Positions 2,929 to 58,781 are shown, numbered from the stretch's first letter. The stretch: DNA of 64,000 nt from Solirubrobacterales bacterium (GCA_051986435.1 JBPYFM010000155.1:1548-65547); one strand, 5' to 3'. Program-made: numbers and translations. Notes: generated by a model from the letters alone, not told the origin.

Positions 2929-3702
2929 ATGCATGCGATGGAGTCATCCGCGGTGGCAGGGCCCGCCTGGCTGGTCCTGCCGACCTACAACGAGGCGGCC
3001 AACATCGCCGCCATCGTCGAGGCGGCGCGCGCCAACCTTCCCCTTGACGCGCGCATCCTGATCGTCGACGACAACTCACCGGACGGGACCGGCCAGATCG
3101 CCGATCGCCTCGCGGCTGCCGACCAGGGCGTGGAGGTCATGCACCGCGCCGGCAAGGAAGGCCTCGGTCCCGCCTACATCGCGGGTTTCCACCGCGCCAT
3201 CGACGGAGGCGCCGGGTTCGTCCTGCAGATGGACTCCGACTTCTCACACGATCCTGCGGACCTGCCCCGGCTGCTGCGGGCGGCCCAGGACGGCGCGGAC
3301 CTTGTAATCGGCTCCCGCTATGTCGCCGGAGGCGGGGTCACCGACTGGAGCCCGCTGCGCCGCGTGGTCAGTCGCGGCGGCAGTCTCTACGCGAGCCTCG
3401 TCCTGGGCGTCCGCCAGCGCGACCTCACGGGCGGCTTCAAGTGCTTCCGGCGCCGTGTGCTGGAGACGATCGACCTCGACGCGGTCGCCGCCAAGGGCTA
3501 CGTCTTCCAGGTCGAGACGACCTATCGGACGCTGAAGGCGGGATTTACGGTGCGCGAGGTGCCGATTCTCTTCCGCGACCGCCAGGTGGGCGAGTCGAAG
3601 ATGTCCGCAGCGATCGCCGCCGAGGCCACCTGGCAGGTGCCGTTGCTGCGGCGGCGCGTGCGCGACGGGGACCCGCGGACGACCGGCCGGCCGCGGCCAT
3701 GA
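2929..3702 (+). CDS. Polyprenol-phosphate sugar synthase, Ppm1/DPM1-like GT2 (mannose specificity not provable)
   Basis: LVLPTYNEAANI..ILIVDDNSPDGTGQIA..QMDSDFSHDP..GGFKCFRR..FRDRQVGESKMS. ATG at 2929, downstream of the divergent PPTase start. Confidence 0.85.
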   Translation: MHAMESSAVAGPAWLVLPTYNEAANIAAIVEAARANLPLDARILIVDDNSPDGTGQIADRLAAADQGVEVMHRAGKEGLGPAYIAGFHRAIDGGAGFVLQMDSDFSHDPADLPRLLRAAQDGADLVIGSRYVAGGGVTDWSPLRRVVSRGGSLYASLVLGVRQRDLTGGFKCFRRRVLETIDLDAVAAKGYVFQVETTYRTLKAGFTVREVPILFRDRQVGESKMSAAIAAEATWQVPLLRRRVRDGDPRTTGRPRP

Positions 3703-5642
3703 ACGGGGTGAACCTGGAAGGCCTCGCCGCGCGCGCGGCGACGATCGTCGCCGACCGGCGCGTGCGCCTCGGCCTCGCCCTGGTCGGCTTCGGCCTCGTC
3801 ACCGCGATCACCGCGCTGATCGCCCACCCGAAGATGTTCTTCGGCTTCCACGAATACGACGACGAGGGCTACATGCTCACCGCGCTCAAGTCCTTCGTGA
3901 ACCACGGCCACCTCTACGACCAGGTCTTCACCCAGTACGGCCCCTTCTACTACGAGCTCTGGGGTGGCATCTTCTCGATCTTCGGCATCCCGGTCACCCA
4001 CGACGCGGGCCGCAATGCCGTGACCGTGGTCTGGGTCCTTTCGAGCCTCCTCTTCGGGCTCGGCATCCTGAAGATCACCCGCAGCATCGTCCTCGGGCTC
4101 GGCACCCAGATCCTCACCTTCGCGGCGCTCGAAGTGCTGACCAACGAGCCGATGCACCCGGTCAGCCTCATCGCCCTCTTGCTGGCGACGATCGTCGCGA
4201 TCTCGGCGTTCGTCAGCGAGCGCGAATCGCCCTACGCGATGGCCCTGCTCGGCGCCGCGGTGGCGGCGCTGGTGCTGACCAAGATCAACGTCGGCGCCTT
4301 TGCGCTGATCTCGGTCGCGCTCGCGTGCGTGGTCAGCTACCAGGCGCTCTGGAGTCGGCGATGGCCGCGGATCGTGGTGGAGCTGCTGTTCCTCGCGGTG
4401 CCGATCGGATTGATGCTCGGCAAGTTCGGCGAAGGCTGGGCGCGCCACTACGCGTTGCACGTGTTCGCCGCCGCGCTGGCGGTGGTGATCGCGCTACGAG
4501 CCAACAAGCCGGCCCGGCGACCGGGCGGGGAGCTGCGTTGGCTGATCGGCGGCTTCCTCGTCCTCGCCATCGTCTCCTGCGTCGCGATCCTCGGCGCCGG
4601 GACCAGCGTGCATGGGCTGATCGACGGCGTGATTCGCCAGCCGCTGCGCCAGTCGGACGCCTTCACGATCCCGCTCCAACTCTCTCGCCGGCTCTACGCG
4701 ATGGACGTCATCGGGGTTGCCGCCGCGCTGGCGTACTTGTACGCGGCGCGCCGCCGCGGCACCGCCGCGCCGACCCCAGCCTGGCTCGCCGCCTGGTCGC
4801 TCTTCTCGATCGCGGTGGGCTTCACGATGGCCTTCTCGGTCACCGGTCAGATGCTGCCCTTCAACAGCAACGCCCTCTCCGGCTACCAGTTCACGCTGCT
4901 GCCCTTCGTCTGGGTCGCCCTGTTGGTCACCGCGCCGGAGGAGACGCCGCGGGCATCCTTCGCCCGTCTGCTACTGCCGCTGCTGGCCGTGCTGCAGGCG
5001 CTGCACGCGTTCCCGGTGGCGGGCAGCCAGACCCTGCTCGCCGTTGTGCTGATGATCCCGGTCGGGGCGCTCTGCGTCGCCAACGGGGTGCTCGGCCTGC
5101 GGCGCATCGTCGCCGCGCCCGACAGCCTGGCGCTCGGCGGCCTCGCCGTTCTCCTGGTCCTCGTCTTCGGCTGGTTCACCGTCAACGTGTACCTGCGCGA
5201 ACCTCTGAAGGCGGCGCGCGGCACCTATCACTCGAGCGCGCCGAACGCGCTGAACCTGCCGGGGTCCCACGACATCCACCTCGGCAGCGTCGAAGAAGCG
5301 GAAAAGTACGAAGACATCGCCGACACGATGCGCAAGGAATGCCGGGCGACGCAGATGGAGCCAGGGATGGACAGCTTCTACCTCTGGGCCGAACAGGAAC
5401 CGCCGTCGCTGACCGCGACCGGTTGGGAGACGCTGTTCGACGACGAAGCCCAGGAACAGGTGATCGAAGACATCGCGCCGATCGAAGGCCTTTGCCTCCT
5501 GCGCAACAAAGAACGCGCCGCGGGTTGGGGGCTGGGTGAAGGTCCCCTGGTCAAATACCTCGAACATGGCTTTACCTTGATTGGCAAGTGGGGCGAATAC
5601 GAACTGTTGCGCCGCGAAGGGCCGGCGAAGCCCGCGTCGTGA
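3699..5642 (+). CDS. Polytopic membrane protein, probable GT-C-type glycosyltransferase
   Basis: ATG overlaps the upstream stop (ATGA). There are more than 10 hydrophobic segments, an acidic first loop (FHEYDDEGYML) and a soluble C-terminal domain of about 130 aa. The upstream part of ORF 3441.. is an Arg-rich artefact. Confidence 0.65.
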   Translation: MNGVNLEGLAARAATIVADRRVRLGLALVGFGLVTAITALIAHPKMFFGFHEYDDEGYMLTALKSFVNHGHLYDQVFTQYGPFYYELWGGIFSIFGIPVTHDAGRNAVTVVWVLSSLLFGLGILKITRSIVLGLGTQILTFAALEVLTNEPMHPVSLIALLLATIVAISAFVSERESPYAMALLGAAVAALVLTKINVGAFALISVALACVVSYQALWSRRWPRIVVELLFLAVPIGLMLGKFGEGWARHYALHVFAAALAVVIALRANKPARRPGGELRWLIGGFLVLAIVSCVAILGAGTSVHGLIDGVIRQPLRQSDAFTIPLQLSRRLYAMDVIGVAAALAYLYAARRRGTAAPTPAWLAAWSLFSIAVGFTMAFSVTGQMLPFNSNALSGYQFTLLPFVWVALLVTAPEETPRASFARLLLPLLAVLQALHAFPVAGSQTLLAVVLMIPVGALCVANGVLGLRRIVAAPDSLALGGLAVLLVLVFGWFTVNVYLREPLKAARGTYHSSAPNALNLPGSHDIHLGSVEEAEKYEDIADTMRKECRATQMEPGMDSFYLWAEQEPPSLTATGWETLFDDEAQEQVIEDIAPIEGLCLLRNKERAAGWGLGEGPLVKYLEHGFTLIGKWGEYELLRREGPAKPAS

Positions 5643-6601
5643 CCACCTGGGTCATCACCCCGGTCTATTGGGACACGGCCTCGTTCCGGGTCCTGCGCGA
5701 GCGCCTGCTCGAGGTGCTCGCGGCGGAGTCCTCGAGCCGCGGACCGGTCCGTTTCGTCGCCATCGACGACACCGCCGGCCAGGATCCCGAGGTGCCGGGC
5801 CTCGAGCAACTCGGCGACGTCATCGTCCTGCAGCCACCCTTCAACCTCGGCCACCAGCGCGGCATCGTCTACGCCCTGCGCAAGATGCTGCCGCGCTTCG
5901 CCGACGACGACGCGGTGGTGACGATGGACGCCGACGGTGAGGACCGGCCGGAGGACCTGCCGCGCCTCCTCGCCGCCCTCGACGAAGGCGAGGCGCCCCA
6001 GCGCCACGTAGTCCTCGCCCTGCGCACCAAACGCCACGAGCCTCCCGCCTTCAAGGTCCTCTACCGCGGCTTCAAACTGCTCTTCCGCACGCTCACCGGG
6101 GCGACGGTCCGCACCGGCAACTACGCCGTCATGCCCGGTGGCCTCGCCAAGCGCGCCCTGCTCCACCCGACCTTCGACCTCGCCTACTCCTCCGCCATCC
6201 TGGCCCTGGACATGCCGGTCGCCTACGTCCCCTGCGAACGCGGTCGCCGCTACGAGGGCGAGTCGAAAATGACCTACGGCAAGCTCGCCATGCACGGCCT
6301 CCGCATGCTGATGCCGTTCACCGACCGCATCGCGATCCGCGCTCTTGCCGCCTTCGTCGTCTTCGGCCTGCTCGGCATCCTCCTCGCCGCCGTCGTGGTC
6401 TTCCTCAAGTACTTCACCAACTCCTCGATCCCCGGCTGGACCAGCTACGTCGTCCTCGGCGCCCTGATCGTCTCCCTCGTCGCCCTCGGCAACTTCGTCA
6501 GCCTCTTCGTCCTCTTCTCGCAGACGCGCGCGGTGTCGTTGGCGTCGATCGAGGAGCTCACCGAGGACGTGGAGTTGGATGACGGGGGGGAGAGCGCCTG
6601 A
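5639..6601 (+). CDS. GtrB/DPM1-like GT2, polyprenyl-phosphate sugar synthase with C-terminal TM hairpin
   Basis: GTG overlaps the upstream stop (GTGA). FVAIDDTAGQD, TMDADGEDRPEDLPRLL and GESKMTYGKLAMHGLRML, followed by two TM helices. Confidence 0.75.
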   Translation: MTTWVITPVYWDTASFRVLRERLLEVLAAESSSRGPVRFVAIDDTAGQDPEVPGLEQLGDVIVLQPPFNLGHQRGIVYALRKMLPRFADDDAVVTMDADGEDRPEDLPRLLAALDEGEAPQRHVVLALRTKRHEPPAFKVLYRGFKLLFRTLTGATVRTGNYAVMPGGLAKRALLHPTFDLAYSSAILALDMPVAYVPCERGRRYEGESKMTYGKLAMHGLRMLMPFTDRIAIRALAAFVVFGLLGILLAAVVVFLKYFTNSSIPGWTSYVVLGALIVSLVALGNFVSLFVLFSQTRAVSLASIEELTEDVELDDGGESA

Positions 6602-8370
6602 TGTTCAAGGAAACGGGCGAGCTGCTCGCCGGGTTCGTCGCCCACGGCATCCTGATCGGCCTGCCGGGGATCGCCGCGGTGCTCCTGGTGATGCGACGGG
6701 GGCTCAAATCGGTCCCGCTCCTGATCGGTGTGGGCCTGGTGGCTTCGGGGGGCCTTTCCTACGTCGCCTTCTGGGCTTACTACGGCAGCGAGTCCATCGG
6801 CACCACCTATGACTTCCTGGTCTTTGGCGCCTCGCTTCTGGCGATCGGCTTCTGCTGGCGCGAGGGTGGCCTGGACAAGGACATCCTGCGGGCGCTGCGC
6901 ACGCCGCTCCTCCTCTGGATCTTCGGCAGCGCCTTCGTCCTCTTCTTCGGCTTCCTTCACGGGGGCAACCACAACGCGATCACGTTCGCGGCGTACCGCT
7001 TCTCGGGCGAGCTCCCCTCGGACAATGACATCCCGCGCTATTTCACCGAATGGTTCGCGACCCACGGTCATCAGCATCCGCCCGAATACCCGGGCGAATG
7101 GCTGGTCAGCGATCGGCCGCCGCTCCAGATCGGCTACACGCTCGCCCAGCGTGGATTCTTCAACACCGCCCAAGGGCTCCACTACCAGATCCTCTGTGTG
7201 ATCGAGAACGCTCTCTGGATCCCGGCGATGTGGGCGGTCTTGGTCGCCGTCCCGCTGCGGAGGGTGACGCGGAGCCTCGCGATGCTCGTGGCGATGATCT
7301 CCGACATCGCGCTCGTGCATGGCTTCTTCGTCTGGCCGAAGCTGATCGCAGCGGCCTTTCTGCTCGCTGCGTTGGCGGTGATCCTCTCGCCTGAGTGGCG
7401 AAACAGCCGCCGTGATCTCCGGGTCGCCGCGTTGATCGGAGGTCTGCTCGCCCTCTCGATGCTTTCCCACGGGTCGAGCGTCTTCGGCGTCATCCCGCTG
7501 ATCATCTTCGCCGCGTTTCGGGGGATCCCGAACTGGCGCTGGCTCGCTGCCGCGGTGGCCGCCTTGCTCGTCTTCTACGTGCCTTGGAGCGCCTACCAGA
7601 AATACGCCGATCCACCCGGCAACCGTCTGCTCAAGTACCAGCTTGGCGGGGAGACGGAAGTCAACTCCGAAGGCACCCTGGAAGCGATCGAGAACGGCTA
7701 TTCGGAGGTCGGCCTCAGCGGGGCGATCGACCTGAAGGAGGAAAACTTCGAGGAAATGGTCGGCTGGCCGCGGACCAAGAACGAATGGAACGCGGCGATC
7801 ACGGCACTCGACGAAGGGAAACCAGGGATCGCCGTCGCGAAGCTTCGCTGGGACCGATTCTTCTGCCTCTTCCCGTTCCTTGGGTTCCTCCTGCTGGGGC
7901 CGATCGGGATGATCGTCGCCTGGCTCGTGAAGAAGAAAAGCGACCCCGGTGGCTGGCGCGAGCCGGACGAGTGGCGCTTTGCGCTCCTGTGCTTCGCCTT
8001 CTTCGCCATCGCCTGCGTCTCGTGGGGCCTGCTCCTCTTCGGTACCCCCGAGGCGCGGACGACGATCCACGTCGGCAGCCTCGCCGTCCCGTTGCTGGGC
8101 GCGGTCGGCTGCGTGGTCGGCCTGCGTTCGGTCTACAGGCGGCTGGGCGCGGTTCTGGCGATCTTCAACGTGCTCTTCGTGCTCGCGCTCTACGCGCCCT
8201 CCTTCGAACCACCTGAACCTGGCACCAGCTACTCGGTGCTGAACGGGCTGCTGACGCTGATCAGCCTCGGAGGGATCGCCTGGGTGCTGTTCCGCGGGCC
8301 GGTCCTGCCGCAACGACGTGCGGCGATGCCGGTCCGGCGGCACGACCCTGCCGTGCCCGCGCGCGGATGA
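6601..8370 (+). CDS. Polytopic membrane protein, GT-C-like (paralog of 17084..18988)
   Basis: TGATG overlap with the upstream gene. SDRPPLQIGY resembles the DKPPL-type loop of PMT_2/ArnT-like enzymes. FVWPKLIAAAFLLAALA matches FTWPKLLAAAFVLIGFL in the 17084 protein. Confidence 0.65.
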   Translation: MFKETGELLAGFVAHGILIGLPGIAAVLLVMRRGLKSVPLLIGVGLVASGGLSYVAFWAYYGSESIGTTYDFLVFGASLLAIGFCWREGGLDKDILRALRTPLLLWIFGSAFVLFFGFLHGGNHNAITFAAYRFSGELPSDNDIPRYFTEWFATHGHQHPPEYPGEWLVSDRPPLQIGYTLAQRGFFNTAQGLHYQILCVIENALWIPAMWAVLVAVPLRRVTRSLAMLVAMISDIALVHGFFVWPKLIAAAFLLAALAVILSPEWRNSRRDLRVAALIGGLLALSMLSHGSSVFGVIPLIIFAAFRGIPNWRWLAAAVAALLVFYVPWSAYQKYADPPGNRLLKYQLGGETEVNSEGTLEAIENGYSEVGLSGAIDLKEENFEEMVGWPRTKNEWNAAITALDEGKPGIAVAKLRWDRFFCLFPFLGFLLLGPIGMIVAWLVKKKSDPGGWREPDEWRFALLCFAFFAIACVSWGLLLFGTPEARTTIHVGSLAVPLLGAVGCVVGLRSVYRRLGAVLAIFNVLFVLALYAPSFEPPEPGTSYSVLNGLLTLISLGGIAWVLFRGPVLPQRRAAMPVRRHDPAVPARG

Positions 8371-9779
8371 ACGAGTCCGCTCGGAGTCGAACGATCTCGC
8401 GCCTTCGGCACCGGGTCGCCGCGGGGATGTTCCCGGCCCCGGGAGGCGGCGGGCCGCGCTTCTCGCTCAAGGAGGGGACCGCGCTCATCCTCGGCTTTCT
8501 GGTCCTTGCCACCATGCTCTCGGTCCTCCGCCTGGGGAACGACGCCTTCCGCACGGTCTGGGCGGAGGACGCCACCGTCTTCATGGAGTCGGCATTCGCG
8601 CACGGCTACTGGCATTCGATCTTCGAACCGTACGCGGGCTACCTGAACGTCGTGCCGCGGCTGATCGGCGGGTTCGGGACGGTGATCCCGCTGCAGGACG
8701 CCGCGGCCGTGATCGCATTCCTGTCGGCGCTCTGTGCCGCGCTCAGCGGGCTGACCGTCTGGTTCGGGAGCGCCGGACAGGTGCGCGACCCCTGGTTGCG
8801 CGGTGGGCTGACGATGGCCGTGGCACTGGCCGCGACCGCCGGCCAGGAGACCCTCGACTCGGCCGCCTACGTGCCCTGGTTCATGCTTGTCGGTGCGTTC
8901 TGGCTGCTCTTCCTGCGACCGAAGACCTGGTGGGGGGCAGGCCTGGCGGCCGGCTTCCTGGTGCTCACCGGGCTCAGCACGCCGGGCGTCTGGTTCTTCA
9001 TCCCGGTCGGGGCTCTGCGAATTTTCTCGCTCTCGCCGCGGCGGGAGCCGCGCACCGCTCTGGTCGCAGCCGGTTGGCTCGCCGGGGGGCTTGCCCAGAT
9101 CCCGGTCATCTTGTCTCAGGATCAGGGGACCACGATGTGGTCCCGTCACATCTGGACGGCCCTGGTCCAGCGCGTGATCGACGGCGGCATCTTCGGGCAG
9201 CGACTCGGGGGCGGGCTCTGGGACATCTTCGGCTGGGCCTGGTTGACCGTGCTTTGCATCGTCCTCGTGGCAGTGCTTGTGCTCGGCCTCCGTCGCGCGC
9301 CGGAGAGCACCCGTTGGTTCGTCCCATCGGCGATCTTCATCTCCTTCGGGATGTTCATGTTCTCGGCCTACCAGCGGTCGATCGGACCGAGCATCTTCTG
9401 GTCGCCGGGCACCTCCGGCGGTACGGCCAGCCGCTATGCCCTGGTGCCATCGATGCTCTTCTTGAGCGCCTTCGTGGTGCTGCTCGACGGCGCCTTTCGC
9501 GATCGGGTGGCCCGTGGCCCGCGCTCGAACTGGCCGGCCATCGCCGGCGCCGCCTTGATGCTGGTCGCCGTCGCCGTCTCCTTCGATATGACCTCATCGG
9601 CGCGAAGCATGCCCTACTGGTCTGAAGCCCTGCGCTCGGCTGCCGACAAGTGCATCACCAAGCACGAAGAGTTCGCCGGCATCGAAACCTCTCCGCCACC
9701 GTTCGGCGTCGTGGTCTCCTGTTACCAGGTCGAACAGTTCGCCTCCCCCGGGATCCGCGATTCGGCCTCGGGGGACTAG
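8367..9779 (+). CDS. Polytopic membrane protein of unknown function (possible GT-C-like)
   Basis: ATGA overlap with the upstream gene. Multiple TM segments and an early loop WAEDATVFMESAF..EPYAGYLNVVPRLIG. Confidence 0.6.
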   Translation: MNESARSRTISRLRHRVAAGMFPAPGGGGPRFSLKEGTALILGFLVLATMLSVLRLGNDAFRTVWAEDATVFMESAFAHGYWHSIFEPYAGYLNVVPRLIGGFGTVIPLQDAAAVIAFLSALCAALSGLTVWFGSAGQVRDPWLRGGLTMAVALAATAGQETLDSAAYVPWFMLVGAFWLLFLRPKTWWGAGLAAGFLVLTGLSTPGVWFFIPVGALRIFSLSPRREPRTALVAAGWLAGGLAQIPVILSQDQGTTMWSRHIWTALVQRVIDGGIFGQRLGGGLWDIFGWAWLTVLCIVLVAVLVLGLRRAPESTRWFVPSAIFISFGMFMFSAYQRSIGPSIFWSPGTSGGTASRYALVPSMLFLSAFVVLLDGAFRDRVARGPRSNWPAIAGAALMLVAVAVSFDMTSSARSMPYWSEALRSAADKCITKHEEFAGIETSPPPFGVVVSCYQVEQFASPGIRDSASGD

Positions 9780-9799
9780 AACTTGTACCGTCACGGGCC

Positions 9800-10891
9800 G
9801 TGACCAGGCTTCTGATCACCGGCGGGGCCGGCTTCGTCGGCTCCAATCTTGCCGTCGAGCTCGCCATGCGGCACCCAGACTGGGAGATCCTCGTTCTCGA
9901 CAATCTCTACCGGCGGGGCTCGGCGCTGAACCTTCCACGCTTGGAAGAGGCGGGCGTGGAGTTCGTCAAGGGGGACGTGCGCGAGCCCGACGACCTGGCA
10001 AAGGTGTCGAAGCTCGACGCGATCGTCGAGTGCTCGGCCGAGCCGTCGGTGATGAGCGGCGTCGATGGAGACACGGGCTACCTGGTCCACACGAACCTCA
10101 CCGGTGCCTACAACTGCCTCGAGCTGGCGCGACGGGACTCGGCCTTCTTCGTGTTCCTCTCGACCAGCCGCGTCTACCCGGTCGAGCTTCAGGTCGGGCT
10201 GCGGTTGGAGGAGGCGGCGACACGATTCGAGCTCGCGGCCGAGCAGCGTGTTCGCGGTGTCTCCCCGGCAGGGATCTCCGAGGAGTTCCCGTTGGAGGGG
10301 GCACGGACGCTCTACGGCGCCACCAAGCTGGCCGCCGAGTTACTGGTCGAGGAGTACCGGGCGTCGCTCGGAGTCCCGGCCGTGATCGACCGCTTCGGCG
10401 TCGTCGCCGGACCTTGGCAGATGGGCAAGGTGGACCAGGGGGTGTTCACCCACTGGATGCTTGCCCACTACTTCCGCAACCCGCTCTCCTATATCGGGTT
10501 CGGAGGACATGGCAAGCAGGTGCGGGACCTCCTTCACGTCCAGGATCTGGTCGACCTGGTCGAGCGCCAGCTGCTCGAGCCGAGCAAGTGGGATGGGCGA
10601 ACCGTGAACGCCGGTGGCGGCCGCGAGATCAGCCTCTCGCTGATGGAGACGACGGCGATCTGCCGGGAGCTGACGGGGAACGAGGTACCGATCACACCGG
10701 TCGCCGAGACCAGGCAGGGCGACGTGCCCATATATCTTTCCGACTGCGCACGGCTGTTCGAGCTTGATGAGTGGCGTCCCCGGCGGAGCGCCAAGCAGGT
10801 GCTCGCCGACATCCACGAGTGGATCGCCGCCGACGAGGACCGGATCGCCGAGGCGCTGGAAATCAAGGCCCCCGCGGGGGGGAAGGAGTAG
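9800..10891 (+). CDS. NAD-dependent nucleotide-sugar epimerase/dehydratase (extended SDR, CDP-paratose-2-epimerase-like)
   Basis: GTG start directly before [14 protein letters not shown]. Contains the YGATKLAAE (YxxxK) motif. The ORF upstream of 9800 overlaps the previous gene. Confidence 0.8.
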
Positions 10892-10895
10892 GACA

Positions 10896-11965
<1,070 letters not shown>

Positions 11966-11969
<4 letters not shown>

Positions 11970-17021: not shown

Positions 17022-17083
17022 GGCTCAAGGGTCCCGGGCAAGGATCGTGTGATCGAAGTCATCCCGCGGACCTGAAACATAGT

Positions 17084-40743: not shown

Positions 40744-40755
40744 CTTCTTGAGAGC

Positions 40756-40785: not shown

Positions 40786-40807
40786 GCCCTGGCGTGAGGA
40801 TCCAGAG

Positions 40808-41401: not shown

Positions 41402-41435
41402 GTCGCCTCACCCGCCGCCGGTAGCCTGCGGCCGC

Positions 41436-49021: not shown

Positions 49022-49083
49022 CGGGCGATGATATGAATCCGCTCCCGGTCGGGGACCTGCAGGGGCGCCGCCGGACATTTCCT

Positions 49084-49800: not shown

Positions 49801-49832
49801 GCGGCCCGAGCGCCGGTGGAGGCCGGAGGGCC

Positions 49833-50564: not shown

Positions 50565-50571
50565 CCGGTCG

Positions 50572-51585: not shown

Positions 51586-53357
51586 TCGCAGCTCCTGGTG
51601 CGATAGGCCACCGAGGCGGTGGCGAACGTTTCCCGTTTGAGGAAGCAGGTGTTCAGCAATTCTTCGGTGATCGGCCCGACTGGCGGTCCGAAGGAATCGC
51701 GGGCGAAGGCGGTGATGCGTGGGTCTTCCCGGATCCTCTGCGCCTCGAGTTCATCCCCGCGGGCGAACCCTTCTTCGCCCCAGATCACGTACGAGTCGAG
51801 GTAGAAGTCGAGGTCCTTGGGCCCGATCACGATGTCGTCGGGTTTGGTCGCCGCGTTGATGTCGTTGTAGAGGGCGACGAATTCCTTCGTGTCAGGCGTG
51901 GGATAGAGAGGCGAGGTGTCGGCCCGGTAGCTATGGATCGACTGGGCTACGAAGAGGATCGCGAGCACGACGACGACACCCGCGCCGAACCCCCGCCTTC
52001 CGCCGAGCAACCAGGCCAGGCCCATCGCCGCCCCGGAAATGGCGGCGATCCCAAGCTCGTGACCCCAGGTGCCATAGTGGACGTCGAATTCGGCCAGATG
52101 CGTGATCTGGTCGCCGATCAGCGCGGCGGCGACCACCCCGAGCCCGATCGCCACCGGCCAGATCACCCAGCGTCTTTGGTCGGGAGTCGGGCGCCGCAGC
52201 AGCATCCAGGTGATCGGCAGGATCAGCGCCACGAGCGCCGGAAAGCAGTACTTGCCCTGGAACGTGCCGTCGGTGGGGGAAAGCACGACATAGGTCACCA
52301 GAACCCCCAGCGCGAAGAGGTAGGGCAGGTCAAGCGGCCGTAGCTTCCAGTCCCGGACGAAGTGGCGGAGCAGGTCGACGAGATACACCGCCGCCAGGAT
52401 CACCAGGGCGAGGCCGAACCAGCGCAGGTGCCAATGGACCGCGTGCGCGACTACCCACCATTCCGAGAACAGGCGGTTGCTCTTCTGTTCGAAGGTGACT
52501 TCGAAGGTGTACGAGAAGGGGATGCTCGTGGCCCAGCACCAGAGCGCGTAGGTGCCGAAGAAGAGGCCGGCCCCCGCACCGATGAAGGCGGCCGCCTCGA
52601 CGAGCGAGCGCCATATCGGTCGCCGGCTCAATACCCACCAGACACCGAGGACGCCGACGAGGACGATAGCCGTCGTCAGCTTGGTCCAGCAGACCAGCGC
52701 GATGACCAGTGCCAGCGCCGCGACCTGCCAGGGACCAAGCGCCTCCCTTCGCTTGGCCAGCCGGATCGCGGTCCACATGGCCAATAACAGGATCGGTGCG
52801 TAAGCCTGCGTGTCGATGTCGAGGAAGGTGCTGCCCTGGATCCCGAAGGGATTGATCAGCAGCAGGATCGCCGCCACCCCGCCGATCACCTGCCAGCGCT
52901 TGGTGACCTCGCGAGCGATCAGCACGATCAGGACCGCCGACAGCAGCAACCCCACGATGCCGACGATGCGTTGTCGGTAGGGCGAGTTGGTGCCGAGGAA
53001 GGCCATCGAGGTCGCCGCCGTGTAGAGGTAGAGAGGCGGGTGCCAGGCGCCCACAAGCGGGTTCGTTTCCCGCTTCCATTCCGTGTCGAGGCGGATGACG
53101 TGGCTCTTGTCGGCATCGAGAACCGGCTTACCGGTTTCGTAGATCGCCTTCGCCATGACCGGCCATTCGCTCTCCTCGATCCGGAGCGGCTGTTTGGCGA
53201 AGTGCGCTGCGTTGACCAGATAGAAGGCAAGCGCGATCGCACCTGCCACGTAGAGCCAGCGCGGTGCTCCCTTCCAGCGGCCGCCGAAGAAGCGCAGGCC
53301 GGCGAGCAGGGTCGTGCGAGAGTCGTCCATCGGGTCGCGCGGCAGTCTAGGCGGCAA
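51582..53357 (-). CDS. ArnT/PMT_2-like GT-C glycosyltransferase
   Basis: RIEESEWPVMAKAIYETGKP, VGAWHPPLYLY and about 12 TM segments. Start is either the TTG at 53357 or the ATG at 53330. Confidence 0.7.
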   Translation of the reverse strand: MPPRLPRDPMDDSRTTLLAGLRFFGGRWKGAPRWLYVAGAIALAFYLVNAAHFAKQPLRIEESEWPVMAKAIYETGKPVLDADKSHVIRLDTEWKRETNPLVGAWHPPLYLYTAATSMAFLGTNSPYRQRIVGIVGLLLSAVLIVLIAREVTKRWQVIGGVAAILLLINPFGIQGSTFLDIDTQAYAPILLLAMWTAIRLAKRREALGPWQVAALALVIALVCWTKLTTAIVLVGVLGVWWVLSRRPIWRSLVEAAAFIGAGAGLFFGTYALWCWATSIPFSYTFEVTFEQKSNRLFSEWWVVAHAVHWHLRWFGLALVILAAVYLVDLLRHFVRDWKLRPLDLPYLFALGVLVTYVVLSPTDGTFQGKYCFPALVALILPITWMLLRRPTPDQRRWVIWPVAIGLGVVAAALIGDQITHLAEFDVHYGTWGHELGIAAISGAAMGLAWLLGGRRGFGAGVVVVLAILFVAQSIHSYRADTSPLYPTPDTKEFVALYNDINAATKPDDIVIGPKDLDFYLDSYVIWGEEGFARGDELEAQRIREDPRITAFARDSFGPPVGPITEELLNTCFLKRETFATASVAYRTRSCD

Positions 53358-53367: not shown

Positions 53368-54873
53368 CTAGTACGCGCCTTCGCCGCGCATGATCGCGCG
53401 CGGGGTCCGCATCAGGATCTGCAGGTCGGTCAGGAGCGAGAGGTTGTCGAGGTAATCGCGCTCCATCGCCAGGCGCTCCTCGAAGGTGAGGTCGCCGCGG
53501 CCGTAGACCTGCATCGGGCCGGTGAGGCCGGGCTTGATCGTGAGGCGGCCGCGTTGGCGCTCGTCGTAGAGGGCGACGATCGCCTCCTCCTCGGGCCGCG
53601 GGCCGACGAGGGACATCTCGCCGCGCAGGACGTTGAAGAGCTGCGGCAGCTCGTCGATCGAGGTCCGCCGCAGGAGCTTGCCGACGCGGGTGACGCGGGG
53701 GTCGTCGGGGATCTTGAAGGCGGGCTCGGAGAGCTTCGAGAGGTCGATCAGCTCGCCGAGGCGCTCCTCGGCGTCGGCGACCATGGTGCGGAACTTCAGC
53801 ATCGTGAAGGGCACGCCGTCCTTGCCGGCGCGCCGCTGGCGGAAGAAGACGGGGCGGCCGGAGTCGATCAGCGTCGCGATCGCCGCACAGAGGAGGAGCG
53901 GCGAGAGCCCGATCAGCAGGAGGCCGGAGACGAAGATGTCCATCGCCCGCTTCATCGCCTGGGTCGAGCGCGGCGGGTCGGAGAAGCGGAAGTCGAGCAC
54001 CGGCAACTCGGCGAGGCGGTTCAGCTCGATCCCCGGGCCGAGCAGGCCGTAGTGCTGCGGCAGGAACGTGAGCGCCAGGCCGGCCTTCTTGCACTCCTCG
54101 ATCAGCCGCTCGGCGGCCGGCTCCGACATCTGCTCTTCGGTGACGACGACGCGCTCGATCCCGGTCACCTCGGCGACCTCGGAGATGTCGGCGAGGGTGC
54201 CGAGGCGGGGCAGCTCGGCCGAGTCCTCCTCGCGCGAGGAGGAGAGGTAGCCGACCAGGTGCAGGCGCGTCTCCGGGTGGGTGACGACGCGGCGGGCGAC
54301 GGTGTCGACGGTGGCGGGCGGGCCGATGACCAGGCCGAGGGCGACCGGCGTCGCCCGGTGCCAGACCCAGCGCAGCAGGCCGCGCAGGACGAAGCTGCCG
54401 ATCAGGGTGCAGATGCCGACCCCGATCGCGCTCATCGGCGAGAGCGGGCCGACCGGGCTGATCGCCAGCAGGCCGTCGATCACCAGGGTCCCGAGGACGG
54501 TCGCCGAGACCAGCGAGGGCACCTCGTCGAGGGTCGAGTGGCGGATCCGGCGGTGGTCGTGGTCGTAGAGGCCGTGGAGCTTGACCACGAGGATCCAGCT
54601 CGGGCTGAAGAGGACCGCCCAGAAGAGGTCGGCGAGGTCGGTGGACGAGGTCGCCGCGGTGACGACCAGCAGGGCGCCGATCAGCGCCGTCCAGTCGCCC
54701 AGGGCGAGGAGTCGACGCAGGAGCGCGCCGCGCCGCCGCGAGCCCTCCGGGCCGCTCAGCCCGAGCCGGTCGGCGGCGGCCCGATACGGGATCGCGGTCG
54801 CGCGCCGCTCGGCCTCCTCGGCGGCGGCCCGGCGTTCGGCGGCGATCTTCTCGGTGTCCGGCGTTCGGGTCAT
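53368..54873 (-). CDS. Polyprenyl-phosphate hexose-1-phosphate transferase (WbaP/WsaP-type initiating enzyme)
   Basis: KRAMDIFVSGLLLIGLSPLLL, GRPVFFRQRRAGKDGVPFTMLKFRTM and DELPQLFNVLRGEMSLVGPRP (Bac_transf). The ATG overlaps the upstream stop (ATGA). Confidence 0.9.
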   Translation of the reverse strand: MTRTPDTEKIAAERRAAAEEAERRATAIPYRAAADRLGLSGPEGSRRRGALLRRLLALGDWTALIGALLVVTAATSSTDLADLFWAVLFSPSWILVVKLHGLYDHDHRRIRHSTLDEVPSLVSATVLGTLVIDGLLAISPVGPLSPMSAIGVGICTLIGSFVLRGLLRWVWHRATPVALGLVIGPPATVDTVARRVVTHPETRLHLVGYLSSSREEDSAELPRLGTLADISEVAEVTGIERVVVTEEQMSEPAAERLIEECKKAGLALTFLPQHYGLLGPGIELNRLAELPVLDFRFSDPPRSTQAMKRAMDIFVSGLLLIGLSPLLLCAAIATLIDSGRPVFFRQRRAGKDGVPFTMLKFRTMVADAEERLGELIDLSKLSEPAFKIPDDPRVTRVGKLLRRTSIDELPQLFNVLRGEMSLVGPRPEEEAIVALYDERQRGRLTIKPGLTGPMQVYGRGDLTFEERLAMERDYLDNLSLLTDLQILMRTPRAIMRGEGAY

Positions 54874-56753
54874 CCGCAACTTTCAAACCCTTCGGTGAGG
54901 CAAGTTTCGAGTGGGTTGAGGCGTTTTGCTTCGTTCAGGTCGTTCTGGGCGGCTTCGTTCTGACCTGCCTGATGCTCCGCTTTCGCCCGCAGGTACCAGA
55001 GCGTCCAGTTGTGGTCCTCGCGGTCGATCGCTTGGCCGAAGCGGTGGATCGCTTCCGGATATTCGCCCTGCGCCTGCGCCAGGAGGCCGAGCTGGAGGTA
55101 TGGCGTCGCCGCCCACGGCTCGATCGAGCGGGCGGTGTCGGCGTGGTTGACCGCGCTTTCGAAGTCTTCTTCGTGCACCGCGGCGGTCGACTGGCTGATC
55201 TCGTGGTCGATCAGGAGCGGGCCGGTGAGCGCGAGCATGGTCAACCAGGCTATGGCCAAACCGGCGATCGTGAGGCCGAAACGCCGACTTTCGGCGTCCG
55301 TCTCGACCTCGACCCCTTCCCGCGCGCGGGCCGCGGCGCGGGCGCGCCAGAGCTGGCCGCAGCGGGCCGCGACGAGGATCCCGGTCGACATGAAGAAGAC
55401 CGAGCCGATCACTGCCAGTTGCCAGAACCAGTCGTAGGCGACGCCGACGGCGAAGGCGAGGCTGACGCCGAGGAGGATCGCGTAGAGCTCCCGCTCGCGG
55501 CCGCCGGCGGCGCGCCAGGCCGCATATCCGGTCCAGAGCAGGAAGAGGACCAGCCCCAATATCAGGAGCCCGCCGACGATCCCCAGCTCGCCCAGCGCCT
55601 GCAGGTAGAGCGAGTGCGCCTGGGTGTTCGTCATCGCGATCGGACGCAGCTGGTCCCAGGCGAACTGGTAGGTGCCGGCACCCTGGCCGACGATCGGCTT
55701 TTCGTCGAAGGATTCGAGCGCGACTTCCCAGAACTGGATGCGGCCGCGGCTCGAGGCTTCGGCGAGGCCCGAGGGCGTGGTGAGGTCGGTGCTGGTGAAC
55801 TTGTCCCAGGCGGTCTCGCCGTAGAGGATCCCGGCGACGATCGCGAGCACGAGGGCGACGATCGCGATCCCGCCCAGCACGCGGCGGTCGCGGGAGACGG
55901 CGAGGGCGCGCTCGACCGCCGGCGGGTTGCGCCGCTCGAGCCGCCGCATCGCCCAGATCGCGAGCACGGTCACCGCGATCCCGGCGAGCAGGATCGCTCC
56001 CGCTTTCAGCCCCTGCCCGACGATCGGGGCGAAGTTGTAGTTGTTCGACAGTTCCGGATAGGAGTGGATCGCGACGATAGCCGGCACCGTCAGCACGGCG
56101 GCGATGAGCAGCGTCGCCAGGTACCAGAGGCGGTCGCGGGAGAGGACGATCAGCGTGCCCGCGGCGAGGATCAGCGTGAGGATGCCCCCCCTCGAATGGG
56201 TGAAGTAGAGCGCGAGCAGGACCGCGGGCAGCGCGCCGACCGAGAACCAACGCAGGGCGCGGCTCAGCGACCGACGGCTCATCCAGACGCAGAGGCCGGC
56301 GGCAAAGGAGAAGAGGATCGCGTTGCCGTTCCAGTAGCCGAGGGGGTACTGGAGCCTGGTCCCTTTCGATTCGTCGAAGGAAAGCGCGAAAACGTGCGGC
56401 AGGAGGCGGGTGGCCAGGGCCAGGATCGCCACCAAGGCCAAAGCGATTGCGATGCCTTCACCGAAACGTTGGCGCCGTTGGTTGGTTTGGGCGAGGAGGA
56501 ACGCGGCAAGGAACACGCCGAGGTACATCAGGACGCGATCCGCCTCGGCGACGCTCAACTCGACAGAACCGGACCAGAGAGATGAGATTGCAGACCAAAT
56601 TGCAAAGCCCAAGAGGAGGCCCGATGCCCAGTAGAACGGCTTCGCGAGCAGTGACCTCCCGGCCACGCCAAGCACCAGCAGGCCCACGACCAGCAGCCAG
56701 ACGACCAGTCCGGCGATATGCCGGGAGCTCAGCGAGAAGCCTCCGCCGGTCAT
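54870..56753 (-). CDS. O-antigen-ligase-like (Wzy_C) polytopic membrane protein with C-terminal TPR repeats
   Basis: FTHSRGGILTLILAAG lies in a large loop region (Wzy_C-like). The C-terminal YLQLGLLAQAQGEYPEAIHRFGQAI..AKAEHQAGQNEAAQNDLNEAKRLNP is TPR-like. The start is uncertain (56753 versus 56900, which would overlap the divergent gene). Confidence 0.65.
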   Translation of the reverse strand: MTGGGFSLSSRHIAGLVVWLLVVGLLVLGVAGRSLLAKPFYWASGLLLGFAIWSAISSLWSGSVELSVAEADRVLMYLGVFLAAFLLAQTNQRRQRFGEGIAIALALVAILALATRLLPHVFALSFDESKGTRLQYPLGYWNGNAILFSFAAGLCVWMSRRSLSRALRWFSVGALPAVLLALYFTHSRGGILTLILAAGTLIVLSRDRLWYLATLLIAAVLTVPAIVAIHSYPELSNNYNFAPIVGQGLKAGAILLAGIAVTVLAIWAMRRLERRNPPAVERALAVSRDRRVLGGIAIVALVLAIVAGILYGETAWDKFTSTDLTTPSGLAEASSRGRIQFWEVALESFDEKPIVGQGAGTYQFAWDQLRPIAMTNTQAHSLYLQALGELGIVGGLLILGLVLFLLWTGYAAWRAAGGRERELYAILLGVSLAFAVGVAYDWFWQLAVIGSVFFMSTGILVAARCGQLWRARAAARAREGVEVETDAESRRFGLTIAGLAIAWLTMLALTGPLLIDHEISQSTAAVHEEDFESAVNHADTARSIEPWAATPYLQLGLLAQAQGEYPEAIHRFGQAIDREDHNWTLWYLRAKAEHQAGQNEAAQNDLNEAKRLNPLETCLTEGFESCG

Positions 56754-56818
56754 CGCCAGAGCCCCGATCAGGGCGATCGGACCGAGGAACGCCGCCGATT
56801 CCTCTAACCTTGCGCGGA

Positions 56819-57442
56819 ATGCAAGGTGCCCCCCACCGCCAGGCCCGTAGCTCGGCCCGCTCCTTCTTCTTGCTTCCGTCAGTGCTTGCTCTGCTGGCAT
56901 TGGCTCTATTTCCCGTGAGCGCTTTCGCGGGGAACTCGGGCGAAACCGTCTACGAAACCGAAATTCCCTCGGTGACGAGTGAACCCTCCACGGGGGGGAA
57001 CCACGCGGGCAAGTCGCCTACCCATCACAGCAGCCATAACACCGGCAACGGTGAATCGGGTCGGGCGACCGGCTCCAACGCCGAAGTCGGCGGGGGCGCG
57101 GAAGGGTCCGAAGGGAAGTCGGCAGGGCATAAGAAGGAAGGGTCCTCTTCGCAGGAAGAAGAAGGCAATCCTTCCACGGCCGGTGGCGGCGGTGGCAACA
57201 AGCCGAACGGCGGCGGTGGAGGCAAGGGGCCGGAAGGCTCGATCTCCGAATCGAAGGAACTCGGCGGAACCCAGCCGGGCGCCAACGCTTCGCACAGCAG
57301 CGGCGGCTCCTCGCCGGTCGTGCCCATCCTGATCGCGGTCGCGGTCCTCGCGGCGATCTCGATCGGCGTGGTGCTCTACCGCCAGCGTAAGTCGGGCCCG
57401 GGTGGCTCCGACGGACGCGTCTCCTCGTCCAACGCGAGCTAG
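56819..57442 (+). CDS. Secreted, C-terminally TM-anchored Ser/Gly/Glu-rich low-complexity protein
   Basis: Signal peptide MQGAPHRQARSSARSFFLLPSVLALLALALFPVSAFA. About 130 aa of disordered S/G/E/N/T-rich sequence, then the TM PVVPILIAVAVLAAISIGVVLY followed by RQRK. Confidence 0.55.
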   Translation: MQGAPHRQARSSARSFFLLPSVLALLALALFPVSAFAGNSGETVYETEIPSVTSEPSTGGNHAGKSPTHHSSHNTGNGESGRATGSNAEVGGGAEGSEGKSAGHKKEGSSSQEEEGNPSTAGGGGGNKPNGGGGGKGPEGSISESKELGGTQPGANASHSSGGSSPVVPILIAVAVLAAISIGVVLYRQRKSGPGGSDGRVSSSNAS

Positions 57443-57605
57443 AGTGCCGTGCCAGGCGATGTTCGCCCACTCTGGCTTGCCCTCGCCGCGCCCGGCGGCG
57501 TCCTCGACCGCTCGACGTGGCTCCGCCACGCCTTCGGGTCTGCGTCCTTGCCGGCCAAGGCGACTGCTGCGCCGGACCCGGGCAAACCTCACCCGGCACG
57601 GCACT
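57443..57605 (+). other. Possible structured 5' leader or small element bounded by an 11-bp perfect inverted repeat
   Basis: AGTGCCGTGCC (57443-57453) pairs with GGCACGGCACT (57595-57605). Internal short hairpins include GGCGAtgtTCGCC, CGTGGctccgCCACG and CCTTGccggcCAAGG. Confidence 0.3.
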
Positions 57606-57632
57606 AGTCCACAACCCCACATGGAGGGATCG

Positions 57633-58781
57633 ATGCTTAAAGCCAGCAGGAAGGCGCGCGCCCTGACGGCCGCGTTGGCCGTCGTCCTCGCGCTCGGCGC
57701 CTTCGCCGCGAGCGCCGCGGCCGTGCCCGCCAACTTCTTCGGCGTGGTGCCGCAGTCGTCGCTCAGCCAGGAACAGTTCAACACGCTCAAGCAGGGCGGC
57801 GTGAAGGAGATGCGCGTGGCGCTGATCTGGGGCGCGGTCCAGCCGACCCGGGGCGGCACCCCCAACTGGGGCGAATTCGACGCGACCGTCGAACGCGCCG
57901 CGAAGAGCGGGATCGAACTGCTGCCGTTCATCGTCGGCACGCCGACCTGGGCGGTGCCCAGCGTGAAGGTCCCCGGCGCGCCCGGGGCGCTCGCCCCCGC
58001 CCGCCTGCCGGTGGCCGGCACCGCGGGCAAGGCCTGGTCGACGTTCCTCAAAGCCGCCGTCGCCCGGTACGGGACCAACGGCAGCTTCTGGAGCGAAAAC
58101 CCGACCCTTCCGGCGAAGCCGATCAAGGCCTGGCAGATCTGGAACGAGCCGAACTTCAAGTACTTCGTCGCCCACCCGAACCCGGCCGAATACGGCAAGC
58201 TCGTGAAAGCCTCCTCGGCGGCGATCAAATCGGTCGACCCGACCGCGCAGGTCGTCCTCGGCGGCCTCTTCGCGAAGCCGGCGGGTGCCCGGTACCTGAA
58301 GGGCAGGAAGGTCATCCACGCGACCAGCCCCAACTACTTCGGCTCGTACTTCCTCGAACAGATGTACAAGACGAACCCGGGGATCAAGTCCCGCTTCCAG
58401 GGCGTCGCGCTGCACCCCTACGTGGCGCGGTACCGGCAGCTGCCGCCGGAGATCGAAGAACTCCGCGGGGTGATGACGCGGTCCGGCGACGCCGCCAAGG
58501 GCCTCTGGATCACCGAGCTCGGTTGGAGCTCCGAACCGCCGCAGGGCCCGTCCAACGTGTTCGCGGTCGGCGCCTCCGGCCAGGCGCGGGAACTGAAAGG
58601 CGCCTTCAGCCTGATGAAAGCCGACGCGGCGAAATTCCGCCTCCGCCACGTCTACTGGTTCTCGGTCGACGATGCCCCGGAAACGTGCAACTTCTGCAAC
58701 GGCTCCGGCCTGTTCAGGAAGGGCTTCGTGCCGAAGAAGTCCTGGACCGAATTCACGAAGTTCACCGGCGGCACCCCCTAG
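57633..58781 (+). CDS. Secreted clan GH-A glycoside-hydrolase-like protein, paralog 3 of 3
   Basis: GGAGGG RBS, then an ATG at 57633. Signal peptide ending ASAAA. WQIWNEPNFKYF, ITELGWSS and C-terminal ETCNFCNGSGLF motifs. Confidence 0.7.
   Translation: MLKASRKARALTAALAVVLALGAFAASAAAVPANFFGVVPQSSLSQEQFNTLKQGGVKEMRVALIWGAVQPTRGGTPNWGEFDATVERAAKSGIELLPFIVGTPTWAVPSVKVPGAPGALAPARLPVAGTAGKAWSTFLKAAVARYGTNGSFWSENPTLPAKPIKAWQIWNEPNFKYFVAHPNPAEYGKLVKASSAAIKSVDPTAQVVLGGLFAKPAGARYLKGRKVIHATSPNYFGSYFLEQMYKTNPGIKSRFQGVALHPYVARYRQLPPEIEELRGVMTRSGDAAKGLWITELGWSSEPPQGPSNVFAVGASGQARELKGAFSLMKADAAKFRLRHVYWFSVDDAPETCNFCNGSGLFRKGFVPKKSWTEFTKFTGGTP

Follow-up and report, generated by a model that had tools for sequence, protein, structure and literature searches.

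A 64-kb stretch of DNA from an uncultured soil bacterium of the Solirubrobacterales (class Thermoleophilia, phylum Actinomycetota; JBPYFM010000155.1:1548-65547), hereafter the window, carries a composite cell-surface glycan island of ~57 kb (1107-58781; all positions are counted within the window). Among its products are a transferase of hexose-1-phosphate to polyprenyl phosphate (PHPT), here called PGT, and a membrane protein of the O-antigen ligase family with a TPR domain at its C-terminus, here called Wzy_C-TPR. With slightly less than even confidence, we read the island as encoding a pathway in which Wzy_C-TPR would hand a rhamnose-containing glycan, exported by an ATP-binding cassette (ABC) transporter, en bloc to a protein or another non-wall acceptor. 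A first-pass annotation had described 2929-58781 (~50 kb) as one composite rhamnan-type glycan locus with the gene logic of the slg clusters for S-layer protein glycosylation. Its gene observations were confirmed and its slg-type interpretation was supported in part; the locus is indeed composite, but the functional left border is more likely at 1107, where a PslG-like hydrolase is encoded whose paralogue lies at 57621-58781.

The G+C content of the window is ~68%, and because antisense artefacts crowd raw lists of open reading frames (ORFs) at such high GC, genes were called by frame analysis of third-position GC (GC3). All of the ~48 resulting calls were scanned against Pfam and NCBIfam (paired scores below are bits against the cut-off, which for NCBIfam is the curated one). 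The scan upheld the gene inventory, including the family assignments of Wzy_C-TPR and PGT, and placed ~37 glycan-related genes in a contiguous series, which is beyond chance. Profile hidden Markov models identified ~11 glycosyltransferases of family 2 (GT2) and one of family 4 (GT4). The host had been taken for an actinobacterium, and this is borne out by the close homologues of Wzy_C-TPR, of a GT-C protein and of the major facilitator (MFS) protein used as an anchor below, all of which come from uncultured Solirubrobacterales (metagenome-assembled genomes). No match was obtained in tRNA and Rfam scans of the window.

Rhamnose supply, ABC export and their neighbourhood

Four plus-strand genes provide for dTDP-rhamnose supply, and all four exceed their NCBIfam equivalog cut-offs: a long form of rmlA (30805-31884; TIGR01208, 484/320), rmlD (35215-36060; TIGR01214, 303/224), rmlB (36093-37076; TIGR01181, 419.5/365), and rmlC (37076-37624; TIGR01221, 217/156). 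The exporter is encoded on the minus strand by wzm (25686-26543; ABC2_membrane, 55.9 bits) and the long wzt (26540-27643) that had been noted before. Both match their families, Wzt with ABC_tran followed by a C-terminal Wzt_C domain above the Pfam threshold (45.2/30.4). The best PDB matches of Wzt (8dku and 7k2t, E 5e-54, residues 3-326 aligned) are the full-length O-antigen Wzt of Aquifex including its carbohydrate-binding domain, and there are matches of Wzt and Wzm to RfbE/RfbD, the galactan exporter of mycobacteria, as well. Both genes are kept in relatives.

Three WbbL-like GT2 enzymes with PF00535 matches belong to the same set: GT2a (27890-28840, plus strand), GT2b (28850-29779, minus strand), and GT2c (45154-46023, minus strand). 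Of the at least three YEDxDL motifs reported initially, two are exact (YEDVDL in GT2a and YEDLDL in GT2b), but the third is present only as the variant MEDLDW in GT2c. GT2a and GT2b are kept in most relatives, and GT2c, 78-92% identical there, always accompanies PGT as its neighbour. Against the rhamnosyltransferase model TIGR01556 the three enzymes score 25-35 bits (cut-off 200). For the "rhamnan" first proposed, the window offers no more than dTDP-rhamnose supply and sub-threshold WbbL-like GT2s.

The methyltransferase count was likewise trimmed. Three of the four proposed enzymes pass the Pfam threshold, namely the S-adenosylmethionine (SAM) methyltransferase MT1 (21490-22161, minus strand; Methyltransf_23, 67 bits), MT2 (29798-30658, minus strand; Methyltransf_23, 30.1/27), and MT3 (49833-50591, in a window-specific insert), but the fourth, MT0 (20867-21490, minus strand), is a weak SAM methyltransferase at 18.9 bits, below the cut-off. 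MT2 is the core methyltransferase, found in many related loci, and is the candidate chain-capping enzyme. MT1, MT2, and MT3 are stand-alone proteins, and their role in capping is presumptive.

To compare gene order, species-representative genomes were anchored on the MFS gene at 37643-39277, and all window proteins were mapped onto 76 loci. The core synteny is conserved in ~40 species-level relatives. In the clade whose anchoring MFS protein is at least 70% identical, to which the statement of conserved order applies, the genes run wzm-wzt-GT2a-GT2b-(MT2)-rmlA-(variable slot)-rmlD-rmlB-rmlC-MFS1-(optional MFS2, TetR, mem622, mem311, ROK)-GT2c-PGT-Wzy_C-small ORF-GHc-Lhr. Both rmlC and PGT are present, 2.5-9.4 kb apart, in 21 of the 23 loci with enough flank (15.7 kb in the window), and at one locus (L075) rmlC directly abuts the GT2c-PGT-Wzy_C cassette. 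Because of this order and co-location, we regard the rml/ABC half and the PGT/Wzy_C half as a maintained neighbourhood; the slg-type gene set thus recurs across the clade and is not an accident of the window. Two Pfam-annotated relatives show a minimal cassette, Lhr-hydrolase-small ORF-Wzy_C-PGT-GT2, beside MFS/TetR/ROK genes. We had considered that the MFS/TetR/ROK block might split two unrelated loci, an idea overturned by the 76-locus scan, in which the two halves are kept together. The earlier wording of a single locus is nevertheless too strong: the neighbourhood is kept, but two relatives (L079 and L002, described below) and the central 7.5 kb of the island do not fit one unit.

PGT, Wzy_C-TPR, and a small mucin-like protein

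PGT (53368-54879, minus strand) is a large PHPT of the WbaP/WcaJ family (Bac_transf PF02397, 213 bits). Its best NCBIfam family is that of exopolysaccharide biosynthesis PGTs (TIGR03025, 349.5/295.6), and its scores lie below the WbaP- and WcaJ-specific NCBIfam cut-offs. The label of a WbaP-type initiator thus stands at the family level (PF02397 and TIGR03025) but not at that of WbaP itself. The adjoining gene, for Wzy_C-TPR (54870-56900, minus strand; 676 aa), gives a PF04932 match above the Pfam cut-off (64.1/31.7) in addition to the TPR domain, in agreement with the ligase-like protein first proposed, at the resolution of a domain that ligases, polymerases, and O-oligosaccharyltransferases (O-OTases) have in common. 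Wzy_C-TPR has more than 2000 homologues; among the 120 listed, most are 675-678 aa long, and the shorter ones are N-terminally truncated calls. In alignments, R387, R419, and H429 of the large loop (370-440) are invariant, and C667 and C675 near the C-terminus are conserved. Applied to the conserved Arg-rich loops, the positive-inside rule suggests an extracytoplasmic location for both the catalytic loop and the TPR domain, with which the conserved cysteine pair is consistent. At 56816-56900 the Wzy_C-TPR gene, as annotated, overlaps at its 5' end with the 5' end of a small gene on the opposite strand; GC3 is ambiguous for both, and some relatives' Wzy_C calls are 37-49 residues shorter.

The opposite, divergently transcribed gene adjoining that of Wzy_C-TPR encodes a small secreted type I membrane protein of 207 aa (P0241; 56816-57442, plus strand). 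Its layout consists of a conserved signal peptide, a short YE-E motif that is conserved as well, a low-complexity stretch of ~120 aa, a near-invariant transmembrane (TM) anchor, and a short cytoplasmic tail. The low-complexity stalk is variable (Ser+Thr 14-34%, Gly 10-29%, hydrophobics mostly at most 8%), and it is disordered and predicted to lie on the same side of the membrane as the catalytic loop and TPR domain of Wzy_C-TPR. The small protein sits between Wzy_C and the hydrolase GHc in 17 related loci. Its family comprises 451 clusters at 50% identity, is unannotated and has no Pfam family; the 150 clusters listed are all short (86-469 aa, mostly 160-290 aa). Neither a sorting signal nor a family was matched in NCBIfam, and the name "CobN" that one source gives to the protein looks like a low-complexity artefact. 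Within the ligase model, this mucin-like neighbour of Wzy_C-TPR is our best candidate for the glycan acceptor, if still an unlikely one.

Dedicated substrates encoded beside their transferases have precedents. O-OTases of the TfpO/PilO, TfpM, and PglS classes are encoded beside their substrates (PMC12645811), and the arrangement here is similar in that a Wzy_C-family enzyme lies beside a single candidate substrate, to which it would transfer the lipid-carried glycan en bloc at the outer side of the membrane. Those enzymes are proteobacterial and act on pilins, unlike Wzy_C-TPR, which lacks the PglL_A and Wzy_C_2 domains and reaches 23.5 bits with the TfpM model, whose cut-off is 600. In the actinobacterium Actinomyces oris, the small sortase-anchored surface protein GspA receives a large glycan via the LCP (LytR-CpsA-Psr) enzyme LcpA (PMC7831098). 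There too the gene for a dedicated small surface protein lies beside that for the transferase; the differences are that in the window the candidate transferase is Wzy_C-TPR in place of an LCP enzyme and that the candidate acceptor is anchored by its own C-terminal TM helix. We lean towards a protein acceptor because of the TPR domain, the substrate-adjacent habit of O-OTases, and the lack of an LCP gene in the island and in five flanks.

The last of these points comes from the families that were not encountered. As had been noted initially, the window holds neither Wzx nor LCP: no gene call matched an LCP or a Wzx/MOP family in Pfam or NCBIfam. An LCP gene lying just outside was considered too, but Pfam annotation of the syntenic flanks at five related loci revealed none. 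A TagO/GacO/WecA-type initiator was absent from the window and from the relatives' annotated flanks, and among the window's gene calls there was no MOP/Polysacc_synt protein, Wzz/PCP chain-length regulator, tyrosine kinase, or outer export component. With flippase and chain-length regulator missing from the window, a Wzx/Wzy pathway was rated unlikely; a small doubt attaches to six unassigned polytopic proteins, among which a divergent Wzy or flippase is possible. Pfam also gave no match to the GtrA flippase family in the window, whose intergenic gaps contain no small multi-TM ORF. Such a flippase may be encoded outside the window, as CflA is encoded away from its locus in L. lactis (PMC9574508).

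The GT-C module, variable genes, and borders

The left part of the island is a module around mem647 (3699-5642, plus strand), a membrane protein without a match in Pfam or NCBIfam. Its AlphaFold2 (AF2) model is of good quality (predicted local distance difference test score, pLDDT, 83.6; predicted template modelling score, pTM, 0.89), and the top 20 PDB matches found with Foldseek, each at probability 1.0, are all GT-C enzymes (DPY19, STT3/OST, ArnT, AglB, AftA, PglB). An alignment of 32 homologues shows D54-D55-E56 to be invariant after TM1. The model thus shows mem647 to have a GT-C fold, and it represents an unannotated GT-C family, new here. Its gene is flanked by two for lipid-sugar synthase-like GT2s. 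One is PPGT2a (2929-3702, plus strand; PF00535, 110 bits), a small polyprenyl-phosphate sugar synthase-like enzyme whose best NCBIfam matches, all below cut-off, are AglJ, Dol-P-hexose transferase, PpgS, and ArnC. The other is GT2x (5639-6601, plus strand; PF00535, 37 bits), which has two C-terminal TM helices in a GtrB/ArnC-like topology and matches ArnC alone, weakly, in NCBIfam. Pairs of a GT-C enzyme and a lipid-sugar synthase are used to build extracytoplasmic side chains of Gram-positive wall polymers (PMC9574508). With regard to three-component extracytoplasmic glycosylation, the GT-C enzyme and the neighbouring polyprenyl-phosphate sugar synthase-like GT2 are thus present, but the small GtrA-family flippase was not found in the window.

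The module continues on the plus strand with two polytopic proteins, mem589 (6601-8370; 12-14 TM helices, no family match) and mem470 (8367-9779; ~8 TM helices, GT87 at E 0.6 only), homologues of which recur in the variable slots of relatives. The two are fused as one ORF of 1069 aa in L080 (12885-16094), which suggests that they work together. They are followed by SDR1 and SDR2 (9800-11969), NAD-dependent sugar-nucleotide epimerases/dehydratases (PF01370, 117 and 122 bits) that fall below the cut-off of every NCBIfam equivalog, and by PPGT2b (11966-12733; PF00535, 78 bits), another polyprenyl-phosphate sugar synthase-like GT2, which is 29% identical to PPGT2a and has AglJ, PgfS, Dol-P-hexose transferase, and ArnC as its best sub-threshold NCBIfam matches. 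The left end of the module is formed by the hydrolase GHa, described below, and by an ACPS-type 4'-phosphopantetheinyl transferase (2307-2906, minus strand; PF01648, 42.5 bits). The latter keeps its place in relatives, flanked by the genes for the border hydrolase and the GT-C enzyme (L078 9360-9932; L080 9369-9941), and neither a carrier protein nor an obvious substrate is encoded nearby. The whole series (GHa, phosphopantetheinyl transferase, mem647, GT2x, mem589, mem470, SDR1, SDR2, PPGT2b) recurs in L078, which lacks PPGT2a, and in L080. On a 2.85-Mb contig, L079 has a GT2, a GH-A hydrolase, a GT-C enzyme, a GT2, two membrane proteins, two SDRs, and a GT2 at 8027-19194, with unrelated genes thereafter. 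Because it stands alone there, we regard the left GT-C module as a separable unit.

Between this module and the exporter genes lies a series of minus-strand genes. The first encodes a pyruvyl-transferase-like protein (12730-14340; GC3 0.80), which had been listed in the first-pass annotation and does pass the PF04230 threshold (37.8/25.3), but which covers only profile positions 119-277 and has no match in PDB or NCBIfam. GT847 (14337-16880) is a large protein of several domains, the central one being a GT2 (PF00535, 47.7 bits), mem634 (17084-18988) has ~13 TM helices and no family match, and GT2x2 (18955-20589) is a two-domain GT2 of bifunctional-polymerase architecture with two PF00535/PF13641 stretches, the N-terminal domain being closest to the chondroitin synthase K4CP (2z87, E 4e-21). 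Beyond MT0 and MT1, GT4_864 (22158-24752; PF00534, 79 bits) combines a GT4 (GT-B) domain with a C-terminal region of 490 aa, and SDR3 (24749-25681; PF01370, 123 bits) is a sugar-nucleotide epimerase/reductase. The N- and C-terminal regions of GT4_864 are also found in GT995, a product of the insert described next. Domain scans of the unmatched halves of GT4_864, GT995, GT847, and the pyruvyl-transferase-like protein returned no match.

The insert that separates GT2c from PGT in the window (46034-53357; GC3 0.80-0.86) contains the genes for GT995, PPGT2c, MT3, SDR4, and mem591, and is missing at that place in L001 and L002 as well as in the 24 further related loci where PGT is present. The best NCBIfam matches of PPGT2c are again polyprenyl-phosphate sugar synthases, below cut-off, and mem591 has a weak GtrII match (E 0.03). 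A GC3 of 0.80-0.86 is also found for several genes in the 12.7-22 kb stretch, as against 0.93-0.98 for core genes, so that the strain-specific genes with lower values cover 12730-16880, 21490-22161, and 46034-53357. This composition is consistent with horizontally exchanged cassettes of the serotype type. A further variable slot, 31962-35081, whose contents differ among relatives, encodes the polytopic mem545 (31962-33599, plus strand; weakly YfhO-like, E 0.008) and the hydrolase GHb. For the polytopic proteins other than mem647, Pfam searches at E ≤ 5 and NCBIfam gave weak hints only (GT87, YfhO, GtrII), and hhalign comparisons among the unassigned membrane proteins, mem647, and Wzy_C-TPR gave nothing significant (the best pair being mem589 and mem634, at 50% probability).

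The island is interrupted by 7.5 kb without any glycan-family match in Pfam (37643-45105), which encode MFS1, MFS2, TetR, mem622, mem311, and ROK proteins. In several relatives MFS1 alone separates rmlC from GT2c, and in L075 there is nothing between them. MFS1 itself (37643-39277, plus strand; 14 TM helices) lies between rmlC and GT2c-PGT-Wzy_C in most genomes of the clade and in unrelated contexts in more distant relatives. The protein mem622 (41436-43304, plus strand) has ~8 TM helices and a soluble C-terminal domain of 280 aa. Its paralogues, 33-39% identical, occur in or near the glycan blocks of relatives (L004 1105, L033 1436, L052 4564, L058 523), between GT2a and GT2b in L004 and L033, which suggests that the interruption may be partly glycan-related. 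At L001, a Gp49/HTH toxin-antitoxin-like pair (16639-17379) that is absent from the window lies between the mem311 and TetR orthologues.

Three paralogous, N-terminally anchored hydrolases of clan GH-A with intact catalytic motifs are encoded on the plus strand, one at either end of the island and one within it. The left border marker is GHa (1107-2297), a secreted or anchored enzyme with an N-terminal TM helix, a weak GH42 match in Pfam, and the motifs NEA/NEP and ITEMGW; it is 40% identical to the product of 57402-58781 (GHc) and is found at the equivalent place in L078, L079, and L080. GHb (33675-35081; NEP, ITEVGW) is the third paralogue. The right border marker, GHc (57621-58781; NEP, ITELGW), is a PslG-like (GH39-like) anchored hydrolase with PslG as its best PDB match (5bx9 and 4zn2, E 2e-8), and its gene is a conserved neighbour of the Lhr helicase gene. 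PslG is the endoglycosidase of the Psl exopolysaccharide.

A proposed pathway weighed against known systems

The closest comparison is with Geobacillus stearothermophilus NRS 2004/3a and Paenibacillus alvei and their slg clusters. In these clusters a WbaP-like initiator is unexpectedly paired with Wzm/Wzt, and a methyl cap is read by Wzt; the O-OTases WsfB and PglL have TPRs in cis, while WsaB obtains them in trans from WsaA (PMC2943079). The resemblance proposed at the outset extends to rmlABCD, Wzm/Wzt with its Wzt C-terminal domain, a PHPT initiator of the WbaP family, rhamnosyltransferase-like enzymes, a methyl-cap enzyme, a Wzy_C protein with a cis TPR as in WsfB (at the level of architecture), and a location beside a candidate protein substrate, but not to the S-layer gene, in the place of which there is a disordered, membrane-anchored neighbour of 207 aa. 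Further differences are the high-GC actinobacterial host instead of a Firmicute, methyltransferases that stand alone instead of being fused to a glycosyltransferase as in WsaE, and the addition of the GT-C module, four GT2s that resemble polyprenyl-phosphate sugar synthases, three GH-A hydrolases, and 7.5 kb of MFS/TetR/ROK and unknown membrane genes. At ~57 kb, the island indeed exceeds the slg clusters of PMC2943079 in size and decoration.

Because the conserved core reproduces the slg logic (PMC2943079), we favour a lipid-linked, ABC-exported, en bloc sequence of events. PGT would place a hexose-1-phosphate on undecaprenyl phosphate, and GT2c, together with GT2a and GT2b, would add L-rhamnose from RmlABCD. 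The chain would be lengthened by the strain-specific GT2x2, GT4_864, GT847, and GT995, and modified or capped by the SAM methyltransferases, perhaps also by the pyruvyl-transferase-like protein. Wzt would then recognise the finished chain through its C-terminal domain for export by Wzm/Wzt, and GT-C enzymes, of which mem647 is the example, may add side sugars outside the membrane from polyprenyl-phosphate sugars made by the small GT2s. Finally, Wzy_C-TPR would move the glycan en bloc from the lipid carrier to a non-peptidoglycan acceptor, most likely a protein, and the PslG-like hydrolases could trim or release polymer. We infer the order of these steps, the sugars besides rhamnose, the role of Wzy_C-TPR as a ligase and not a polymerase, and the acceptor.

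Several observations weigh against this pathway. WaaL ligases, Wzy polymerases, and O-OTases all have a Wzy_C domain, so that sequence alone cannot tell an O-OTase from WaaL or Wzy (PMC12645811). Searches at E ≤ 0.001 found only PF04932 and TPR in Wzy_C-TPR, with neither PglL_A nor Wzy_C_2. Structure gave little help: the AF2 model built on 35 homologues (61-91% identical) had a mean pLDDT of 57, its membrane domain was unusable, and Foldseek matched the TPR domain alone, as did a phmmer search of PDB with the full protein, while a profile of the membrane domain found no PDB relative at E ≤ 10. The rhamnosyltransferase assignments are sub-threshold (TIGR01556, 25 and 35 bits for GT2a and GT2b), and an S-layer structural gene is absent from the 64 kb. 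Moreover, the distant relative L002 has the Wzy_C-PGT-GT2c cassette without rml/ABC genes within 10 kb, an arrangement that implies that the two halves can work apart, and the genome may encode an LCP or a WecA-type initiator outside the window, which takes up nearly all of its 66,094-bp contig.

The last two points lead to the alternative of a cell-wall polysaccharide of the arabinogalactan or rhamnose-rich cell-wall polysaccharide (Rha-CWPS) type, in which GT-C enzymes would decorate the ABC-exported, rhamnose-containing chain outside the membrane and an LCP enzyme encoded elsewhere would ligate it to peptidoglycan, the PGT-GT2c-Wzy_C-small protein-GH cassette being a separate neighbour; we find this rather doubtful. 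Mycobacterial arabinogalactan is assembled by WbbL, GlfT2, Wzm/Wzt (RfbD/RfbE), the Emb and Aft GT-C enzymes, and Lcp1. The island, from the same phylum, shares with that system WbbL-like GT2s, a two-domain GT2, an exporter that also matches RfbD/RfbE, and a GT-C enzyme whose structural matches include AftA, but WecA, UDP-galactopyranose mutase, and LCP are missing, and PGT and Wzy_C-TPR are found instead. Rha-CWPS loci of streptococci, lactococci, and enterococci combine rml genes and an ABC transporter with three rhamnosyltransferases and side-chain modules of the GT-A/GT-C kind, and keep initiator and LCP usually outside the locus (PMC9574508). The rml genes, about three rhamnosyltransferase-like GT2s (sub-threshold in the island), the ABC exporter, GT-A and GT-C enzymes, and a hypervariable decoration region all find counterparts in the island. 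Rha-CWPS synthesis starts with GlcNAc-1-P transfer by TagO/GacO and ends with LCP, whereas the island has a PHPT initiator and Wzy_C-TPR, without LCP or GtrA. L002, with no rml/ABC genes adjacent to its Wzy_C cassette, is what separate neighbours would predict. Against this, neither a WecA/TagO-type initiator nor an LCP was found in the 64 kb or the syntenic flanks, the only initiator of the island lies beside Wzy_C-TPR, and rml/ABC and PGT/Wzy_C genes stay together in 21 of 23 clade genomes, abutting in L075.

The presence of two sets of machinery in the conserved core, the ABC exporter and the PGT-Wzy_C pair, could also reflect two chains, with an ABC-exported rhamnose backbone onto which a PGT-started oligosaccharide would be polymerised or ligated by Wzy_C-TPR, an option that we consider quite improbable. 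Enzymes of the WaaL type use sugar acceptors, as such a reaction would require; for WaaL itself the acceptor is the lipid A-core of a diderm envelope, and no lipopolysaccharide genes were seen in the window. A dual chain has a lactococcal precedent, in which the joining enzyme is a GT-C protein and not a Wzy_C protein (PMC9574508). The option is further weakened by the lack of a Wzx-family flippase and, within the island, of a separate initiator for the ABC branch. A released exopolysaccharide or capsule, polymerised by Wzy_C-TPR and processed by the PslG-like hydrolases as in Psl biosynthesis, would account for the three such GH-A hydrolases in and around the island and for the exopolysaccharide family matched best by PGT, but is very unlikely given that there is no Wzx, PCP/tyrosine kinase, or outer export component and that an ABC-exported chain of defined length is what capping methyltransferases together with the binding domain of Wzt point to.

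All component families of the island are known, and it is their combination that is new for Thermoleophilia. New, too, is the conserved pair formed by Wzy_C-TPR and a dedicated, disordered membrane protein. In the literature we found no characterised envelope glycan from this class, Solirubrobacter and Conexibacter included, and no description of this locus. The lineage keeps together O-antigen-like ABC export, an slg-like PHPT initiator with Wzy_C-TPR, and mycobacteria-like GT-C decoration. For annotation, the gain is a GT-C family (mem647) that had none and a small-protein family mislabelled "CobN". If the reading of Wzy_C-TPR as a ligase is true, Wzy_C-mediated en bloc transfer would extend to Actinomycetota, and surface polymers could be anchored without LCP enzymes. 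If the small protein is the acceptor, it would be a new membrane-anchored glycoconjugate, and with its enzyme would form a compact enzyme-substrate pair suited to heterologous expression. Wzy_C-TPR would then be a substrate-dedicated O-OTase, and a methyl-capped, rhamnose-containing polysaccharide on a Ser/Thr-rich stalk would amount to a membrane-anchored bacterial "proteoglycan", its glycan decorated outside the cell by the GT-C module, that would fill the role played in other monoderms by lipoteichoic acids and lipoglycans.

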